Shown here in pieces: positions 4,981-17,858 of a DNA stretch of 64,000 nt. Where the stretch lies: NCBI GenBank assembly GCA_036476995.1, contig JAZGCO010000100.1:16428-80427 (forward strand). Reading direction: 5' to 3'. Each line of letters starts with the position of its first letter. Positions within the stretch are counted from its first letter, which is position 1. The notes beneath the pieces are model-generated. The model was not told the DNA's origin. It saw only the letters and a list, made by a program, of their open reading frames with translations, and did not search any database. The translations under genes and the position numbers were made by a program. Source of the stretch: Gemmatimonadota bacterium (GTDB taxonomy: Bacteria; Gemmatimonadota; Gemmatimonadetes; Palauibacterales; Palauibacteraceae).

Positions 4981-6450
4981 ATGCCCAAGGTAGACGTGAT
5001 CATGCCGCAGATGGGGGAGTCGATCGCAGAGGGGACACTCACGAGATGGCTGAAGAATGTGGGCGACGCCGTAGAGCGCGACGAAGATCTGTTTGAGATT
5101 TCGACCGACAAGGTGGATGCGGATATCCCGTCCCCCGCGACAGGCACACTCGCGGAAGTCTTGGTCCAGGAAGGGGACACGGTCGAGGTAAATTCGGTCG
5201 TGGCGCGGATCGAAACTTCCGGCGAGGGCGCCGGCGAGGGCGGCGGCGGCGCGGAGGAGGAAGCGGCCACAGCCGCCGTGACCGAAGAGCCGGCTGCGGT
5301 GGTACCGGCAGAGGCGCCCGCCCCGGCGGTCGCGGAGACCATACCCGAGCCTGTAGCTCCCGCTGCCGAGGCCGATACTTCGGCCGGGGCCGATACTCCG
5401 GCCGGGGCCGGCGAAGTGATGACGCGTGAGGAACGGCTCCGCACGAAATCCACGCCTCTTGTCCGGAAGCTGGCTGAGGAGCACGGAGTGAAGATCAGCC
5501 AGATCACGGGCACGGGCATCGCGGGCCGTGTGACACGCGACGACCTGCTGGCGTACCTGGAGCGCCGGCCGGCCGGCGCCGAGGCGGCGGAACCCTCAGC
5601 ACCGGCTGCGACGCCGAGCGCGCCGGCTCCGGTGCCCGGAACGCCGGTTGCCGCGCCATCCATAGGCCAGCCAGGCGTGATGCGGGTTCCGATTCACGGA
5701 GCCACACTCGATATCAAGATCCCGGGCGTAACGATTCGAGAGGGAGACCGGGTCGAGGAAATGAGCCGCGTCCGGCTCCGCACGATGGAACACATGCTTA
5801 TGTCGAAACGGATTTCAGCTCACGTGACGTCCGTGTCCGAGATCGACTTTGAGCGAGTGGTCCAGCTCCGACGCAGGCTGAAGGGGAAGTACGCTGATAA
5901 GGGCGTAAAGCTGACCTACGGTCCGTTCATCATGAAGGCCGTGACCGAAGGTCTGCTGGCCTATCCCATCCTTAATTCGTCCGTCAACGGCACCCAGATC
6001 GTGTACCACGGCGACATCAACCTGGGCATCGCCGTATCCATCAACGACGGCCAGGAACTCATCGTCCCGGTGCTCAAGAATGCCGACCAGCTTTCCCTGA
6101 TGGGACTGGCCAGCGGCGCCAACGATCTCGCGGAGAAGGCGCGCACGAAGTCGTTGGACTTCGACGACATTCAGGGCGGGACGTTCACGATCACCAACGT
6201 CGGTGTGTTCGGGAACCTGTTCGGAACGCCTATCGTGAACCAGCCGCAGGTGGCCATCCTCGGCACAGGCGTGATCGAGAAGCGGCCAGTGGTCCTCCAG
6301 GACGCGATGGGCAACGATGTGATCGGAATCCGGCACATGTGCTACTTCGGCCTGAGCTACGACCACAGGGTCGTGGACGGCGCGATGGCCGCGTTCTTCC
6401 TCAACAAGGTTCAGGAGGTCCTCGAGAACTTCCCGGAGGACGGCGTCTAG
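4981..6450 (+). CDS. Dihydrolipoamide acyltransferase E2 component
   Basis: N-terminal lipoyl domain (EISTDKVDADIPSP), Ala/Pro-rich linkers, an E3-binding domain, and a catalytic domain with DHRVVDG. Confidence 0.9.
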   Translation: MPKVDVIMPQMGESIAEGTLTRWLKNVGDAVERDEDLFEISTDKVDADIPSPATGTLAEVLVQEGDTVEVNSVVARIETSGEGAGEGGGGAEEEAATAAVTEEPAAVVPAEAPAPAVAETIPEPVAPAAEADTSAGADTPAGAGEVMTREERLRTKSTPLVRKLAEEHGVKISQITGTGIAGRVTRDDLLAYLERRPAGAEAAEPSAPAATPSAPAPVPGTPVAAPSIGQPGVMRVPIHGATLDIKIPGVTIREGDRVEEMSRVRLRTMEHMLMSKRISAHVTSVSEIDFERVVQLRRRLKGKYADKGVKLTYGPFIMKAVTEGLLAYPILNSSVNGTQIVYHGDINLGIAVSINDGQELIVPVLKNADQLSLMGLASGANDLAEKARTKSLDFDDIQGGTFTITNVGVFGNLFGTPIVNQPQVAILGTGVIEKRPVVLQDAMGNDVIGIRHMCYFGLSYDHRVVDGAMAAFFLNKVQEVLENFPEDGV

Positions 6451-6694
6451 TCCTCATGGACCGGCAGGGCCGAGTCCGCCCACCAGTAGTTCGGGATTAT
6501 GGCCTTGCCGGCGATATGATCGGCCGTTAACAGGCTTCTCGCCGAGAAATCAGCCGCAATAGCAGTCCCCCGCGCCCGTTATCGTTCGCTTTCGGGACAG
6601 TATGTGCGATATTGAAGACGCGAATAGCCCTCGACTAAAGAAGTGACATAACGTATATGCGGGCAGCCAAAGAATTTACCGTACGACACGGTAA

Positions 6695-6710
6695 CGGCAC
6701 AGCCGTTGCA
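6695..6710 (+). promoter_or_regulatory. Sigma-54 (-24/-12) promoter candidate upstream of the adaptor/ABC/EBP/HK operon
   Basis: cGGCACagccgTTGCA matches GG-N10-GC with consensus spacing (TGGCACG-N4-TTGCW). The operon it precedes encodes a sigma-54 activator. Confidence 0.45.
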
Positions 6711-6831
6711 TTCTGTGGCCATGATTCGTTGGGCGGAAACCTGATCGTTCATCTTCACGTACGAACACTCGCGGTGGATCCGGGAAGTCGGAGCACGGAT
6801 CTGAAATCAATAGCAGAGAACCAGGGCACGG

Positions 6832-8166
6832 ATGTCTGAACCAAGTCAGAAAACCGGCGGCGAGCCATCGGCAAGGCCGCGGCGCGAGCGGCCGGGAGTA
6901 GCCGAGAGCCTTCGTGGCCCGTCCGGCATGGACATACGGCGGGAGCCGAAGAGCAAGCGCCCGCGGAACATCTTGATTGCGGCCGTAGTTGTTGCGGCAG
7001 TCTTGATCACCGTCTTCCTGGCTCGTCTGGAGCCGGCGGCGCCATCGATCGACAGGAACACGATAGTCCTGGGCCAGGTGGAGCGAGGGAACATGGTTCG
7101 CGCCGTGCGTGGATCGGGCACCCTCGTCCCGGAAAAGGTTCAGTTCGTGGCCGCCGTAACCGCTGGGCGCGTGGAGTCTGTGCACTTCGAGCCCGGCGAG
7201 ACGGTCACCGCCGACGACATCATTCTCGTCCTTTCGAACCCGGACGAAGAGCTGAACGTGTTACAGGCGGAGCAGCAATGGACGGCGGCCAAGGCCACAC
7301 TGGTGTCTCTTCAGCAGAGTCTCGGTACGCAGGAGCTCTCACAGGAAGCCTCCGTGGCCACCACCCGGGCTCAGTACCTGGAAGCCAAGCGTCGCTCCGA
7401 TGCCTTCGCCAAGCTTGTGGGGAGCCAGGGAGTGTCGCGCGACGAGTACGCCACCGCGTTGGGGAACACGGAGGCGTTAGCGACGCTGCTTCGGACATCG
7501 GAGCAGCAACTCGAGTTGCTGAACCGTACGACTACAGAGCAATTGGCCGTTCAGCGGGATCAGGTGGCCCGGCTTCGGTCCATCTTAGACTTTCGGCGCG
7601 CCCAGGCCGCATCCATGCAGGTCCGCGCCGGCGCGGACGGTGTCCTGCAGGACTTCTCGCTCGAGACGGGGCAGTGGGTCCAATCCGGGACGACTCTGGC
7701 CCGCGTCGCGCAGGCGGATCGTCTCAAGGCCGAAATTCGCATACCGCAGACGCAGGCCCGCGATGTCCGGGTCGGGCTTCCGGCTACCATCGACATGAGA
7801 ACCGACACGATTCCGGGGCGGGTCCGCCGCGTAGACCCGAACGTGCAGAACGGCTCAGTACTGGTCGAGGTGACGCTGGAAGGTGAGTTGCCAGCGGGCG
7901 CACGGCCCGACCTGAGCGTGGACGGGACCGTGGAGCTGGAGCGACTCGAAGACGTACTGTTCGTCGGCCGGCCGGCCTTCGGACAGAGCAACAGCACGGT
8001 GACAGTATTCCTCGTTGACGGTTCTGCAGCTGAGCGTAGGACCGTAAGTCTCGGCCGGAGCTCAGTGAACCACATCGAGATTCTGGACGGGTTGGGTGAG
8101 GGGGACGAGATCATCCTCTCAGATATGTCCCGGTACGACAACACCGATCGTGTACGGCTCCGCTAG
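6832..8166 (+). CDS. HlyD-family periplasmic adaptor (membrane fusion protein)
   Basis: N-terminal transmembrane anchor, long coiled-coil region and a beta-barrel/lipoyl-like C-terminus. Alternative start is ATG at 6928. Confidence 0.75.
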   Translation: MSEPSQKTGGEPSARPRRERPGVAESLRGPSGMDIRREPKSKRPRNILIAAVVVAAVLITVFLARLEPAAPSIDRNTIVLGQVERGNMVRAVRGSGTLVPEKVQFVAAVTAGRVESVHFEPGETVTADDIILVLSNPDEELNVLQAEQQWTAAKATLVSLQQSLGTQELSQEASVATTRAQYLEAKRRSDAFAKLVGSQGVSRDEYATALGNTEALATLLRTSEQQLELLNRTTTEQLAVQRDQVARLRSILDFRRAQAASMQVRAGADGVLQDFSLETGQWVQSGTTLARVAQADRLKAEIRIPQTQARDVRVGLPATIDMRTDTIPGRVRRVDPNVQNGSVLVEVTLEGELPAGARPDLSVDGTVELERLEDVLFVGRPAFGQSNSTVTVFLVDGSAAERRTVSLGRSSVNHIEILDGLGEGDEIILSDMSRYDNTDRVRLR

Positions 8167-8214
8167 CTGACTTCGATCGGACCGATTGGATTACAACACG
8201 GAGGGGTAACGAGA

Positions 8215-8919
8215 ATGAGTGAGCAGATGCCGCTGATACGGATGGAAGAAATCCGGAAAGTATTCACGACGGACGAGTTGGAGACACACGCCCTGTCCGA
8301 CATCCACCTGGAAGTCCAGGACGGTGAGTTTGTAGAGGTGGTTGGTCCCTCGGGCTGCGGAAAGTCCACTCTCCTGTCACTTCTGGGATTGCTCGACACG
8401 CCGACCGCCGGGGATTACTGGCTGGACGGCGAGCCGGTAGCGGACCTCACCGCTTCGGAACGCGCCAAGGTGCGCAACCAACATATTGGGTTCATTTTCC
8501 AGGCGTTCAACCTGATCGGCGACCTGACGGTGGAAGAGAATGTGGAGCTGCCTCTGACTTACCGCGGTATGGCGGCCGCTGAGAGAAAGCAGCGGGTACA
8601 GAATGCCCTGGAGAAGGTTGGGATGTCGCACAGGATTGATCACTTCCCGTCGCAGCTGTCAGGCGGGCAACAGCAGCGCGTGGCCGCCGCCCGGGCGGTA
8701 TCCGGCGACCCGCTGATCCTCCTGGCCGACGAGCCGACCGGTAACCTGGATTCGACCAACGGCAACGCGGTCATGGAATTGCTCCAGGAGCTTCACGAGA
8801 GCGGCTCGACGATTCTCATGGTAACCCACGATCCGCGGTATTCAGCCTATGCCCAGCGGACGATCCGTCTGTTTGACGGTCAGGTGGTGGAAGAAGAGGA
8901 AGCTCTTGCCCCGGCCTAG
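8215..8919 (+). CDS. ABC transporter ATP-binding protein (MacB/LolD-like, stand-alone ATPase)
   Basis: Walker [10 protein letters not shown], signature LSGGQQQRV, Walker [12 protein letters not shown]. No fused or adjacent permease. Confidence 0.85.
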
Positions 8920-8943
8920 AGACGCGCGGGAGGCGGCGGTCCG

Positions 8944-10311
8944 ATGAGCGAGTCTGCAGTCGATATTTTGATCGCGGATGACCAGGCGGATGTCCTGGCC
9001 GCGCTGCGCATTCTGCTCAAGAGCGAGGGCTTCAGAGTCGAATGCGTGTCATCACCGTCTGCGGTGCTCGACTCCCTGCAGACGAGCGATTTCGACCTGG
9101 TTTTGCTGGACCTAAACTACACGCGGGATACCACCTCGGGCCGCGAGGGCCTCGATCTCATCAAGCGCATTCGAGATATTGACGGTACGCTGCCGATAAT
9201 CGTTATGACGGCCTGGGGGAGTGTCGAAGGGACTGTCGAGGCGATGCGGAACGGGGCGCGTGACTTTATCGAGAAGCCTTGGGACAACGGCCGGTTATTG
9301 GCCACGATTCGATCTCAACTCGAGCTTGGCACCGCACTGCGAAAGGCCAAGTTCCTGGAGGCGGAGAACGAGTTTCTGCGCGAGAGCGGGCTGCCCAGCC
9401 TGGTAGCGGAAGCCAAGAGCATGCAGCCTGTGCTCAAGCTCATTGAGCGCGTGGCTCCGTCGGACGCCAATGTCCTGATTAGCGGCGAGCCGGGAACTGG
9501 GAAGGAAGTCGTGGCGCGCTGGCTGCACCATCGCTCGAACCGGAAAGGCCGGGCTCTGGTCACGGTCAATACGGGCGGACTCTCGGAGGGCCTGTTCGAG
9601 AGCGAGATGTTCGGCCATGTGCGCGGCGCCTTCACGGACGCCCGCAGTGATCGGGTGGGGTACTTCGAGCTGGCGGACCACGGGACCCTTTTCCTCGACG
9701 AGATCGGTAACGTTCCTCTGGCGCAGCAGGCCAAGCTTCTGCGGGTCATCGAGTCCGGCGAACTGCAGAGAGTGGGCTCTTCACGCACCCAGCACGTGGA
9801 TGTGCGGCTGCTTTCCGCCACGAACTCCCGTCTCGAAACCGCGGTGGCGGAGGGTCGGTTTCGAGAGGACCTCTACTACCGGCTTAATGCGGTAGAGATC
9901 GATCTACCGCCCCTGCGTGACCGCCGTGAGGACATTCCTCTCCTGGCCGCGCACTTCCTCCGGCAGCGCGGAGAGAAATACGGACGGCCTGACGTTTCCT
10001 TTTCTCCCGGCGCTATGGACGCGATACTCAGGTATCCGTGGCCTGGAAACATCAGGGAGCTGCAGCACGCCGTAGAGAGATCTGTCCTGATGACGGAAAG
10101 CGATCGGGTGGACGCTCACCATCTCGGACTCCGGGCGTCCCAAGACGGGACGCTGCGCCTTGAGGGTCTTCCACTGAACGAAGCCGAGCGTGTGTTGATT
10201 CGAAAAGCGCTGTCCAGGAATCGGGGCAACGTGAGCCGGGCGGCGCGAGATCTCGGGCTCAGCCGCAGCGCTCTGTACCGGAGGCTGAAGCGGCACGGCC
10301 TGCACGTGTGA
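8944..10311 (+). CDS. Sigma-54-dependent response regulator (NtrC family enhancer-binding protein)
   Basis: Receiver domain (DDQADV...DLVLLD), AAA+ sigma-54 interaction domain (GEPGTGKE, GAFTDA, ESEMFGH) and a C-terminal HTH. Confidence 0.9.
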   Translation: MSESAVDILIADDQADVLAALRILLKSEGFRVECVSSPSAVLDSLQTSDFDLVLLDLNYTRDTTSGREGLDLIKRIRDIDGTLPIIVMTAWGSVEGTVEAMRNGARDFIEKPWDNGRLLATIRSQLELGTALRKAKFLEAENEFLRESGLPSLVAEAKSMQPVLKLIERVAPSDANVLISGEPGTGKEVVARWLHHRSNRKGRALVTVNTGGLSEGLFESEMFGHVRGAFTDARSDRVGYFELADHGTLFLDEIGNVPLAQQAKLLRVIESGELQRVGSSRTQHVDVRLLSATNSRLETAVAEGRFREDLYYRLNAVEIDLPPLRDRREDIPLLAAHFLRQRGEKYGRPDVSFSPGAMDAILRYPWPGNIRELQHAVERSVLMTESDRVDAHHLGLRASQDGTLRLEGLPLNEAERVLIRKALSRNRGNVSRAARDLGLSRSALYRRLKRHGLHV

Positions 10312-11666
10312 ACAACCGATTGGAATGGAAAGGCGGGCGGCTTTCCTTCCAGCGGCACATTCCGCTTCTCGCCCTGTTATCCGGCCTACCGGCCGTCGTT
10401 ATCGCCCTGGTGCTCATCTGGAACGGCGAGCTGGCAGGCCGAATTCAGACCACCCTCACGGTAGTCATCCTTGGAACCTGGGTCGGTCTACTGGCTGCTC
10501 TCCGCGACCGGCTCGTCCGGCCCTTGCATGCGGTCTCAAACCTGCTCGCGGCGCTGCGAGAGGGTGACTATTCGCTTCGAACGAGAGGCTCCCGGCCGGA
10601 TGATGCGCTCGGCCTGATCCTGACCGAAGTGAACGCGCTGGGACAGTCGTTTCACGACCAGCGTCTGGAAGCGCTGGAGGCGGAGAATCTTCTCGAGCGC
10701 CTGCTGACTGTAATCGATGTCGCCCTCTTCGCGTTCGACGATCACGATCAGCTCATCCTGGTCAACCCGGCCGGCGAACGGGTGCTCGGACAGACTAAGC
10801 TAGAGCTCGAAGGCCAGCACGCGGAAGATCTCCGGCTGGCCGATTGCCTCGCGGGCGATACACCGCGAGTCATGGAACTTGCGTTTGCCGAGGGGCTGCG
10901 CCGGTATGAACTCCGCCGCCGGTCGTTCCGGCAGAACGGGCGGCGTCACCGGCTGGTCGTCCTGGCGGACCTGAGCAAGATTCTTCGCGAAGAGGAACGT
11001 ATCGCCTGGCAGAGGCTGATTCGCGTGCTCAGCCATGAAATCAACAACTCACTGACCCCGATCAAGTCGATCGCCGACAGTCTCGACGGCTTGCTCGATC
11101 GGTTGCCGGCTGACGCGCCCCTGCGGGAAGACCTGCAGGAAGGTCTACAGGTCATTTCGGGCCGATCGGCATCCCTCGGCCGGTTCATGTCAAGGTATGC
11201 ACGGCTCGCGAGATTGCCGAGACCGGCGCTGGCCGATGTCGATGTCGATGCCTGGGTGCGGCGCGTGGCCGACCTGGAGACACGTAGGCCGGTCACCGTG
11301 GAGGGCGGGCCGCGTGTGACGATCAAGGCGGACGGGGACCAACTCGACCAGCTGTTGATCAACCTGCTCGACAACGCTCTAGACGCAGCCGATGTTACGG
11401 ATGGAACTGTATCGGTCTCCTGGCGGGCGGATTCCCACCAGATCCAGGTGGATGTTACCGACACCGGGCCTGGCCTGGCGGAGACGGCCAATCTCTTCGT
11501 GCCTTTCTATACGACGAAGCCGGAGGGATCCGGCATTGGCCTCGCGCTCAGTCGGCTGATCGTGGAGGCGCACGGAGGCGTCCTTTCGCTCACAAACCGC
11601 ACTGACGGTCCGGGCTGCGTCGCCAGGGTGCGCCTGCCGCGAACCCTGGAGTCAGCCCCAGAGTAG
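10308..11666 (+). CDS. Sensor histidine kinase (TM-HAMP-PAS-HisKA-HATPase)
   Basis: Two N-terminal transmembrane segments, H-box LSHEINNSLTPI, and ATPase G-boxes (DTGPGL, GSGIGLAL). GTG start overlaps the response-regulator stop codon. Confidence 0.85.
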   Translation: MNNRLEWKGGRLSFQRHIPLLALLSGLPAVVIALVLIWNGELAGRIQTTLTVVILGTWVGLLAALRDRLVRPLHAVSNLLAALREGDYSLRTRGSRPDDALGLILTEVNALGQSFHDQRLEALEAENLLERLLTVIDVALFAFDDHDQLILVNPAGERVLGQTKLELEGQHAEDLRLADCLAGDTPRVMELAFAEGLRRYELRRRSFRQNGRRHRLVVLADLSKILREEERIAWQRLIRVLSHEINNSLTPIKSIADSLDGLLDRLPADAPLREDLQEGLQVISGRSASLGRFMSRYARLARLPRPALADVDVDAWVRRVADLETRRPVTVEGGPRVTIKADGDQLDQLLINLLDNALDAADVTDGTVSVSWRADSHQIQVDVTDTGPGLAETANLFVPFYTTKPEGSGIGLALSRLIVEAHGGVLSLTNRTDGPGCVARVRLPRTLESAPE

Positions 11667-16565: not shown

Positions 16566-17069
16566 CTATCCTGTCAGTTTTTCAGCCTTCGCGGGAAGCT
16601 CTGCCGGCATCGGTTTGTCCCCAGTGGGGAAATCAGCATCAACTCTCTCGCTATCGACTTTCCGCTTGGACTTTGGCTCGCCCATGTGGAGGCTACCATC
16701 GACCTGCCCACCTTCATCCAGTTTCACGCGACGGCTCCTGATGTCGCCTTCCACTCTGCAGGTGGCCTGAAGTTCTACACGGCTGTCCGCTGACACACTG
16801 CCTTGTACCCTGCCAGCCACAATGCAATCTTGCGTCTCAATATCGCCGACCACGATGCCTTCCTGGCCGACAACAACGCTCTTGCCAGCTCGAATGGATC
16901 CCTCCACTCGACCTTCCACGCGGATCGTGCCGTCGCTCGAGCAGTCGCCGACGATCTTCATACCGGGCCCGACGATCGATACGAAATCGCCCGCGTCCCG
17001 CAACCCATTCTCGCTTCGAGGCTTCATCTCCACAGCTGCCTTTCTCCTGATTTCACCCTGCCTGTCCAT
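16566..17069 (-). CDS. Bactofilin (DUF583 polymer-forming cytoskeletal protein)
   Basis: Repetitive beta-helical bactofilin pattern (VxGxVxG repeats) with a charged C-terminal tail. Confidence 0.8.
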   Translation of the reverse strand: MDRQGEIRRKAAVEMKPRSENGLRDAGDFVSIVGPGMKIVGDCSSDGTIRVEGRVEGSIRAGKSVVVGQEGIVVGDIETQDCIVAGRVQGSVSADSRVELQATCRVEGDIRSRRVKLDEGGQVDGSLHMGEPKSKRKVDSERVDADFPTGDKPMPAELPAKAEKLTG

Positions 17070-17084: not shown

Positions 17085-17858
17085 TCAGCCGCCGCTCACG
17101 AACCCAAGGGGATCCAAAGGCTCCCCATCTCGCTCGACTTCCAAGTGCAAATGCGGTGCCGTCGATCGACCCGTGTTTCCGGTCAAGGCGATGACCTCTC
17201 CCCGTTGTACAGAGTCGCCAGAAGTGACGAACAACCAAGAATTATGCGCGTACAGCGTCGACAGACCATCCGCGTGCGCAATCCTCACGTATTTCCCGTA
17301 GGATTCCTCTTCTTCTGCAGCCTCGACGACTCCAGCTCCTGAAGCCCGTACATAGGAACCGATCGGCACCGCGATGTCGAGTCCCACATGTCCCTCGAAC
17401 GGAGCCGACAACGTGTCACCGAAGGAGCGGGTAACAAATCCCTGCGCCACTAGTGGCCACAGGGAAGGAATGGTCGTCTGCTCTGATGAGCCAGCGGCAC
17501 CGCCACCCGGCATTACTTCCGGAAGCGTAACGTCCCGTTGACCCGGTGCCAACTCGCCGCCCATCACCCGGCGCACCTGGGAATACTCAGCCTCCAACCG
17601 CGCGAGCTGGTCTGAGAGGACGGCGATCTTCGAGTTCTCGCGTGCCAGGGACACGATTCTCTCTCGCTGTGACGCGACCAGGTCGGCCCGCGAGAAGCGG
17701 CCCAGCCAAATTCCGAACGTAACGAACGCCGCGATTACAACAAGTACTGCCCCGGCGACGAAGAGTGTCTGCCTGCGTTCCCCGAGTTCGAATCTGTGGG
17801 AGCGGGTGGCGCCCCCTCGAATCACCAGGATCGTGAACCGGCTTCTCTGAGTCGCCAT
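17085..17858 (-). CDS. M23 family metallopeptidase (LytM domain) with N-terminal TM and coiled coil
   Basis: HxGxD motif (HVGLDIA) and the HxH region (GNTGRSTAPHLHLEV). Confidence 0.85.
   Translation of the reverse strand: MATQRSRFTILVIRGGATRSHRFELGERRQTLFVAGAVLVVIAAFVTFGIWLGRFSRADLVASQRERIVSLARENSKIAVLSDQLARLEAEYSQVRRVMGGELAPGQRDVTLPEVMPGGGAAGSSEQTTIPSLWPLVAQGFVTRSFGDTLSAPFEGHVGLDIAVPIGSYVRASGAGVVEAAEEEESYGKYVRIAHADGLSTLYAHNSWLFVTSGDSVQRGEVIALTGNTGRSTAPHLHLEVERDGEPLDPLGFVSGG

Follow-up and report, generated by a model that had tools for sequence, protein, structure and literature searches.

We analyzed a 64,000-nt stretch of a Gemmatimonadota genome (the window, in whose positions all coordinates are given unless another locus is named) that carries on its forward strand a set of genes for a membrane-anchored HlyD/MFP adaptor, a stand-alone ABC ATPase, an NtrC-type activator of sigma-54 promoters and a sensor histidine kinase (Table 1). 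These four genes form one operon. We consider it fairly probable that the operon encodes part of a split MacB-type pump whose permease is supplied in trans, under dual control by sigma-54 and an extracytoplasmic function (ECF) sigma factor. A preliminary description of this DNA, made from its letters, had recognized the four genes and treated the absence of a permease as an unexplained gap. The absence held up, since tblastn with an ADOP/FtsX permease query detected no FtsX/MacB-type permease anywhere in the window. The gap did not, as orthologous loci carry permeases of the ADOP family and the assembly of the nearest relative contains an orphan ADOP gene. The window operon is a reduced member of a phylum-wide locus family; its regulators are orthologous to those of full loci and the permeases and second ATPase of such loci are absent at its 24-nt ATPase-activator junction.

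The locus family and its permeases

Close homologues of the adaptor number in the hundreds and all come from Gemmatimonadota. We gathered 80 genomic loci of the phylum (given L numbers) through an adaptor alignment and classed them by tblastn with the window proteins and the permease and OEP of relatives as queries. Full loci (L027, L032, L044, L051, L056, L062 and L086) comprise adaptor, ATPase, one to three permeases of ~810 aa, a second ATPase that is 45-48% identical to the first, activator and kinase, and their activators are 61-69% identical to that of the window. L003 and L033 have the full arrangement except for the permeases. In the window, L005, L006, L012 and L017, adaptor, ATPase, activator and kinase stand alone, directly 3’ of a 2-oxoacid dehydrogenase E2 gene; L010, L013-L016, L019, L020 and L022 show the same upstream E2 synteny and are cut by contig ends, and L011 and L018, short contigs also cut by their ends, have only the promoter region in common with the window clade. 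Type A loci (L001, L021, L023, L025, L026 and others) consist of adaptor, ATPase and one permease without regulators. Another frequent arrangement is a long array in which one adaptor/ATPase pair precedes at least three, and up to five or more, permeases. The ATPase is stand-alone, at ~230-255 aa, in every homologous locus, and each complete locus includes a sigma-54 activator gene in its operon. Although the preliminary description thought it uncommon for an adaptor/ABC pair to be under sigma-54 control, such control is the conserved state of this family across Gemmatimonadota, and the window is an ordinary member of a conserved, undescribed arrangement.

Several assemblies of the window clade break inside the ATPase gene (L010, L013, L018, L020 and L022) or just 3’ of the adaptor gene (L014, L015, L016 and L019). 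These breaks may reflect an assembly problem caused by near-identical ATPase paralogues or by strain variation.

The permeases of the relatives belong to the ADOP family (TIGR03434; the name stands for ‘Acidobacterial duplicated orphan permease’), scoring 820-921 bits against a cutoff of 622 (L001, 847; L027, 921; L023, 820). Each is a single chain of ~810 aa with the architecture 2 x (MacB_PCD + FtsX). To locate related permeases we searched metagenomes with an ADOP alignment and recovered 38 loci whose upstream flank extends for 2.5 kb or more; in 32 of them, neither an adaptor nor an ATPase gene occurs within 3 kb upstream. The exact ECF-type promoter motif described below was present in 11 of these 32 orphan loci.

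The closest relative of the window operon is L005 (GCA_039714435.1, contig JBDLJJ010000004.1), with operon proteins 88-97% identical; neither L005 nor the window has a permease in cis. The same assembly holds both this permease-less operon and an orphan ADOP permease, MEN8145485.1, which falls in the L169 permease cluster and is encoded on contig JBDLJJ010000113.1 (L175). The L175 gene (6046-8481) stands alone: the 6 kb upstream contain neither an adaptor nor an ATPase gene. Its neighbour in divergent orientation is a DUF4153 gene, and its product, which has the ADOP Pfam architecture, shares 47% identity with the L001 permease over 804-809 residues. The gene is preceded at 5976-6001 by CGAAACTTCGACGCGAGCGGCAGCGTA, an ECF-type motif of the form CGAAAC-N17-CGTA. 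An orphan permease of the kind that the preliminary description proposed to look for elsewhere in the genome was thus found in the metagenome bin of the nearest relative, where it shares one of the two promoter types of the operon.

Permease and adaptor phylogenies point the same way. In a neighbour-joining tree of adaptor and ATPase, a type A group (L021, L023, L024 and L025) is nested inside the window clade, and the permease identity matrix mirrors the adaptor matrix. One set of orphan permeases (group 1) is 80-82% identical to the type A permeases, the matching adaptors being 77-84% identical; a second set (group 2; L169 and L173) is 64-70% identical to both, and the matching adaptors, those of the window and L005 compared with the rest, are 66-70% identical. 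GC contents agree as well (window, 61.8%; L005, 62.7%; L169, 61.6%; L173, 62.8%). No synteny common to group-1 orphan loci and cis loci (adaptor-ATPase-permease) was found, and the group-1 orphans sit in a conserved DUF819-permease-SH3 neighbourhood of their own. None of 17 species-representative assemblies combined a permease-less locus with an adaptor-ATPase-permease locus (13 held the former and 4 the latter).

Predicted tandem promoters and a candidate enhancer

The -24/-12 element that the preliminary description placed ahead of the adaptor gene proved to be conserved. We scanned for TGGCACG-N4-TTGCW with at least 10 of 12 positions matching (background, 0.032 per kb per strand) and found the element 5’ of the adaptor gene in 15 of 15 orthologous loci of the window clade, and also in the full loci L027, L032, L033, L044 and L051. 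The window copy has two mismatches across the 12 specified positions. The pattern GGCAC-N5-TTGCW occurs twice in the window, compared to 0.24 matches expected.

A putative activator site at a suitable distance (~80-150 bp from the promoter) is provided by a conserved two-dyad block, located in the 6450-6690 region where the preliminary description had suggested such sites would lie. The block is kept in the alignment of the 15 clade loci, starting 110-116 nt 5’ of the -24/-12 element, and its family consensus consists of two TGTCCG-N4/5-CGGACA dyads spaced by ~20 bp, whose distance to the promoter hardly varies. The first dyad of the window is CGTTCGCTTTCGGGACA (6583-6599). An nhmmer model of the block matches the window (E 0.003) and also matches loci outside the training set directly 5’ of adaptor or permease genes (L063, L055, L083, L078, L049 and L060); in most other loci it finds the block 5’ of the adaptor gene. 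The recognition helix of the activator, LGLSRSALYRRL, is invariant in 10 of 11 orthologs, with a single substitution in L051, and this invariance matches the conservation of the putative DNA target, suggesting that the operon’s own activator would bind the enhancer. With activator and kinase genes inside the operon that they would control, the autoregulation proposed in the preliminary description is likely. A drop in GC content between enhancer and promoter (Table 1) is likewise seen in relatives. The enhancer and sigma-54 promoter also occur 5’ of stand-alone ADOP genes in L040 (2868-5288, reverse strand) and L078 (2386-4875, reverse strand).

A perfect 19-nt palindrome, TTACCGTgtcgtACGGTAA (6676-6694), abuts the -24 box of the window and is absent from L005 and every other relative. 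We considered it as an activator site and rejected it, as it is a window-specific insertion that is missing even in L005. The distance between enhancer and promoter is preserved in spite of the insertion (112 nt compared to 115 nt), with a compensating deletion elsewhere.

The second promoter begins 26 nt 3’ of the sigma-54 -12 box and was not part of the preliminary description. It has a -35 ‘AAC’, a -10 ‘CGT’ and a spacer within 16-17 nt, and the motif is enriched near the linked genes: it matches 93 times in 3.84 Mb of loci, with 59 of the matches no more than 330 nt 5’ of adaptor or ADOP starts, and the chance count of ~29 (a uniform-base estimate) is close to the 34 matches located elsewhere. 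The exact motif is found just 3’ of the sigma-54 promoter in 13 of 15 window-clade loci. The orphan permeases nearest the cis permeases of the window’s sister group carry (C/T)GAAAC-N16/17-CGTA 33-95 nt before the start codon, and type A operons share this motif with orphan ADOP permeases. The motif resembles the tgaAAC / CGTA consensus of the Bacillus subtilis sigma-W type (PMC5758882), and it would be read by an ECF sigma factor.

Type A operons and group-1 orphans have in common not only the ECF-type promoter but also the leader and the start-codon context (..GGCGGTGTGG..GAAGGGGACA..GCCATGGAC; L023 9746-9915 compared to L096 2172-2285), and their flanking synteny differs. The common leader suggests that the adaptor and ATPase genes may have been inserted, or excised, between a permease gene and its promoter. 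The ECF-type motif also recurs ~9 kb 5’ of the adaptor gene in the syntenic loci L010 (910), L012 (927), L013 (918), L017 (882) and L020 (1287); in L012 this distal copy lies inside a patatin-like open reading frame (ORF), ahead of the gene of a 109-aa membrane protein (1221-1550). The window does not reach the corresponding region.

Variants of the sigma-54 promoter were seen in other lineages. Our first promoter scan required GC at -12 and overlooked the TTCC and TTAC variants of arrays in Gemmatimonadales and Gemmatimonadaceae (L055, L083, L049, L060, L074, L056, L062 and others), where the enhancer is followed, with its usual spacing, by GGCACG-N4-TT(C/A)C ~100 nt 5’ of the adaptor gene. 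The replacement of the -12 GC by CC or AC in these arrays constitutes a lineage-wide non-canonical -12 box. A -24/-12-like element, (C/A/G)GGCACCCGACTTGCT, is conserved 4.5-7 kb 5’ of the adaptor gene in L056 (5324), L060 (5389), L062 (5320), L066 (2815) and L084 (4260). The second exact GGCAC-N5-TTGCW match of the window, GGCACCGCATTTGCA (17146-17160, reverse strand), lies ~77 nt 5’ of a bactofilin ORF (16566-17069, reverse strand) and within the 3’-terminal part of an M23 peptidase ORF. This match is kept in L005 (20279-20293) and has no enhancer of the operon’s type; its conservation may reflect coding constraint only. Three separately promoted ADOP genes lie beside the adaptor operon in L040 (1-9700): one behind an ECF-type motif (310-335), one behind an enhancer and sigma-54 promoter on the opposite strand (5335-5460), and one directly 5’ of the adaptor operon’s own enhancer and promoter.

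Proposed mechanism and competing explanations

We propose that the operon supplies the periplasmic adaptor and cytoplasmic ATPase of a MacB-type (type VII ABC) envelope-spanning exporter together with a dedicated two-component system. The ancestral arrangement would have been adaptor, ATPase, one or more ADOP permeases, second ATPase, activator and kinase, from which the permeases and second ATPase are absent in the window clade. In this clade a duplicated FtsX permease of the ADOP family would be made from a stand-alone gene at another site, likewise preceded by the ECF-type promoter, and the adaptor/ATPase engine would therefore serve a permease supplied in trans. With an outer-membrane channel likewise supplied in trans, the anchored long-hairpin adaptor, an ATPase dimer and the separate ADOP permease could assemble into a MacAB-TolC-like exporter. 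Relatives in this family export macrolides, peptides, lipids and siderophores, and the substrate here is probably an envelope-active toxic compound or peptide.

Transcription would proceed from the tandem promoters. The sigma-54 promoter would be activated from the enhancer ~112 nt upstream, most likely by the operon’s own activator, resulting in positive autoregulation: the kinase would phosphorylate the activator, raising transcription of the adaptor, the ATPase and the regulators’ own genes. The signal of the kinase could be the status of the membrane or the transporter, by analogy with Bce-type modules. An ECF sigma factor could co-induce the operon and the permease gene. More tentatively, and as a reading slightly less likely than not, we suggest a ‘hub and spoke’ arrangement in which one adaptor/ATPase engine operon, equipped with an intramembrane-type kinase, a sigma-54 activator and an ECF-type promoter, powers interchangeable, separately encoded ADOP permeases that are wired to it through common promoters.

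Several points weigh against the split pump. The physical pairing of the ATPase and adaptor with an orphan permease is deduced from sequence comparison, and for the window organism the orphan permease itself is extrapolated from a relative at dS ~0.6-1.1. The assembly of that relative, GCA_039714435.1, is a metagenome bin, and its two contigs could be mis-binned (GC 62.7% compared to 64.2%). The L175 permease gene has the ECF-type motif only, with neither sigma-54 promoter nor enhancer, so that co-regulation rests on one of the two promoters. No cognate ECF sigma or anti-sigma gene could be identified: tblastn with the L007 ECF sigma, the only one seen near a related locus, gave no match in the window or the other loci, a weak test because ECF sigmas are diverse. 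No RpoN-sized or RpoN-like ORF was seen among the long ORFs of the window, for which no dedicated rpoN search was run. Both transcription starts (~6721 and ~6768) are predicted, the second enhancer dyad of the window (6603-6619) is degenerate, and the enhancer model match is weak (17.9 bits, with the window among the training sequences).

Another possibility, which we regard as unlikely, is that the pair works with one or more other ADOP permeases, whose genes belong to the activator’s regulon and have the enhancer and sigma-54 promoter, and that the ECF-driven orphan is not the partner or is only one of several. Stand-alone ADOP genes with both elements do exist in L040 and L078, and one-to-many pairing is normal in this family, as a single adaptor/ATPase pair of the relatives can be followed by as many as five or more different permeases. 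However, no sigma-54-driven orphan was seen in the window’s clade, the sole orphan found in the nearest relative’s assembly has the ECF-type motif alone, and the permease/adaptor co-phylogeny favours ECF-driven orphans.

A role mainly in sensing, in the manner of flux-sensing Bce-type modules, can also be imagined for the transporter parts: the kinase would lack a sensing domain of its own and would read transporter activity, and export would be secondary. We judge this improbable. BceAB-type transporters are likewise members of the FtsX/MacB superfamily and pass their signal to a kinase of the intramembrane-sensing type, and the kinase of the window has a comparable build, a further feature not included in the preliminary description. 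Two transmembrane helices (hydrophobic segments ~17-38 and ~48-66) are separated by just ~9 residues, in which a W-x-G-D/E...R-x-Q-W-T pattern is conserved, and the protein has no periplasmic domain. In addition, the second ATPase of full loci directly adjoins the activator and kinase genes. Against a mainly sensory role, that second ATPase is missing from the window, the regulator is of the NtrC rather than the OmpR type, the HAMP-like and PAS-like cytoplasmic modules of the kinase could sense alone, and the long hairpin of the adaptor implies a conduit for export across the periplasm.

We find it harder still to accept that the -24/-12 match is unused and that transcription comes solely from the ECF-type or another sigma-70-family promoter. 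The proximity of the ECF-type promoter, the two mismatches of the window element and the rpoN result would be in keeping with such a view, but the element is retained in all 15 clade loci while the flanks diverge, the enhancer keeps its distance despite indels, and a sigma-54 activator accompanies every complete locus.

A last idea is that the adaptor and ATPase lost their function when the permease genes were deleted and persist only as passengers of the two-component system. It fits the clean 24-nt junction at which relatives hold permeases and a second ATPase, and is scarcely tenable given the low dN/dS of both genes, the intact catalytic motifs of the ATPase and the persistence of the arrangement in the window, L005, L006, L012 and L017, with mutual adaptor identities of 67-92%. 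Between the window and L005, dN/dS was 0.072 for the adaptor, 0.013 for the ATPase and 0.061 for the flanking E2 housekeeping gene, which the two thus match or undercut; against L006, L012 and L017 the values for adaptor and ATPase were 0.09-0.19. Both genes are under strong purifying selection, and the permease was not lost through decay of the locus. The intact motifs, low dN/dS, stand-alone homologues and structural matches also rule out the ATPase as a truncated MacB pseudogene, an outcome that the preliminary description had named as fatal to its own view.

The split pump that we favour is built of components from known families (an MFP adaptor, a MacB-clade ATPase, an NtrC-type two-component system and an ADOP permease). 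Different from described systems are the split encoding of the pump, the use of one pair for one to many permeases, and the tandem sigma-54/ECF-type promoters with a defined enhancer. We found no paper on the energisation or regulation of ADOP permeases, on sigma-54 control of MacB-type pumps in Gemmatimonadota, or linking an adaptor/ATPase locus to ADOP permeases. Few transporter families of soil and sediment phyla are as expanded, and as little understood, as the ADOP permeases, and the locus offers a testable answer to how they are powered and regulated, in the form of a conserved stand-alone adaptor/ATPase pair as common motor, along with its regulatory wiring (a defined enhancer and sigma-54 promoter, plus a defined ECF-type promoter). 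Genomes of the phylum also provide a natural series for this one pump, with its genes together in cis, in arrays or split over the chromosome. A ‘missing permease’ should accordingly not be annotated as the sign of a broken system. The hub and spoke arrangement, if true, would explain how orphan ADOP families are energised in Gemmatimonadota and, by extension, in Acidobacteriota, and would imply a two-input logic in which envelope stress is signalled through the ECF sigma factor and transporter or membrane status through the kinase.

Gene products, related systems and surroundings

Profile searches bore out the gene content given in the preliminary description, and the junctions it reported were also correct: the GTG start of the kinase gene overlaps the activator stop (GTGA, 10308-10311), and the ATPase and activator genes are 24 nt apart. 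All four ORFs follow the -24/-12 element in the same direction.

Table 1. Positions of the operon genes and of the regulatory elements upstream of them in the 64-kb window.
Feature	Position	Strand	Details
Candidate two-dyad enhancer (upstream activator site)	6583-6619	+	starts 112 nt 5’ of the -24/-12 16-mer
AT-rich enhancer-promoter spacer	6620-6694		46.7% GC compared to 61.8% for the window
Sigma-54 promoter, -24 GG / -12 GC	6695-6710	+	CGGCACAGCCGTTGCA; predicted start ~6721
ECF-sigma-type promoter	6736-6761	+	-35 GAAAC (6736-6740), 17-nt spacer, -10 CGTA (6758-6761); predicted start ~6768
HlyD/MFP adaptor	6832-8166	+	444 aa; membrane-anchored, periplasmic, long predicted coiled-coil hairpin
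ABC ATPase	8215-8919	+	234 aa; stand-alone, MacB / LolD / FtsE clade
NtrC-type response regulator / sigma-54 enhancer-binding protein	8944-10311	+	455 aa
Sensor histidine kinase	10308-11666	+	452 aa

The adaptor belongs to the MFP/HlyD family by its TIGR01730 score (124.6 bits; NCBIfam cutoff, 94.9) and by Pfam matches to HlyD_3 / HlyD_D23, and its sequence shows an N-terminal transmembrane segment and a coiled-coil region of ~120 residues. Met33 (6928) is a possible alternative start, and invariant alignment columns begin at this residue. The ATPase matches Pfam ABC_tran, and its top NCBIfam models are DarD, the MacB N-terminal domain, LolD, FtsE and DevA. All scores are below the equivalog cutoffs; the ATPase is placed in the MacB/LolD/FtsE clade, and no single subfamily of those the preliminary description had in mind is singled out. 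Among solved structures the top match is 5xu1_A (1e-69), the ATPase of a Streptococcus pneumoniae MacAB-like pump, followed by MacB nucleotide-binding domains (~1e-61), MJ0796, YbbA and LolD. Walker A, Q-loop, LSGGQ, Walker B (LILLADEPT, from the translation) and H-loop are all intact.

The activator combines the Pfam domains Response_reg, Sigma54_activat (218 bits), AAA_lid_14 and HTH_8 (a Fis-type helix-turn-helix). Its AAA+ loop reads GAFTDA instead of GAFTGA, as in 11 of 11 orthologs, a natural variant that a published survey regards as functional and compatible with activation (PMC4641369). Its best NCBIfam models are ZraR, a PEP-CTERM regulator, AtoC and NtrC, and those of the kinase are AtoS and ZraS. 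The kinase has HisKA and HATPase_c domains, so the preliminary description was right in calling it a histidine kinase; its ‘PAS’ label is borderline, because the PAS_8 score of 21.6 bits falls just short of the 21.8 cutoff. Between the transmembrane helices and the PAS-like region, inspection of the sequence by eye shows a HAMP-like linker that has no profile match.

The anchored long-hairpin adaptor is a feature in common with MacAB-TolC of Escherichia coli, the S. pneumoniae pump (5xu1), YknWXYZ of B. subtilis and the cyanobacterial DevBCA, and the clade of the ATPase and the MacB_PCD and FtsX domains of the relatives’ permeases are those of MacB-type pumps. In E. coli MacB the ATPase is fused to the permease, whereas the window ATPase is a separate polypeptide; the permease of the relatives is in turn a fused double unit of ~810 aa, the window operon lacks both the permease and the outer-membrane channel of a tripartite pump, and control is by sigma-54 and an ECF-type promoter. 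Members of the ADOP family that lie beside orthologous adaptor/ATPase pairs exceed the family cutoff, and most of the metagenomic relatives are orphans without an adjacent ATPase. The window has no ADOP member, and its locus would supply the ATPase and adaptor whose absence the label ‘orphan’ implies.

The regulators have the domain architecture of ZraSR, AtoSC and NtrBC, with the regulator genes inside the predicted target operon and the enhancer 100-130 nt upstream. They differ in scoring far below the equivalog cutoffs (ZraR, 370 compared to 760 bits), in the GAFTDA loop, in a kinase without a periplasmic sensor domain and in having an ABC exporter as the target. As in BceRS-BceAB of Firmicutes, a two-helix, minimal-loop kinase appears to be genetically coupled to an ABC transporter of the FtsX superfamily. 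Unlike that system, the regulator is NtrC-type and sigma-54-dependent instead of OmpR-type, an adaptor is present, the organism is a diderm, and the relatives’ permeases are of the ADOP and not the BceB type, with a different architecture.

The window covers a replication-origin region with dnaA, dnaN, yidC, mnmE, mnmG and parAB. We searched it by tblastn for a TolC-like outer-membrane factor with the L003 OEP as query and obtained no match; in L003 and L049 the adaptor gene directly follows an OEP gene. No structured RNA leader was found when 6400-7000 was scanned against Rfam. The upstream neighbour of the operon is a 2-oxoacid dehydrogenase E1/E2 cluster and the downstream neighbour a convergent HAD hydrolase gene. 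The kinase and hydrolase ORFs overlap at their 3’ ends by 15 nt (11652-11666), as in L005, with no terminator-like hairpin between them. In L005, a thioredoxin/redoxin-like gene (9172-9705) separates the E2 and adaptor genes. The equivalent region of the window (6451-6546) keeps only a short stretch that resembles the 3’ end of the L005 gene (tblastn with the last 22 residues, 54% identity, E 0.35), which suggests that a redoxin-like gene may have been deleted in the window lineage.

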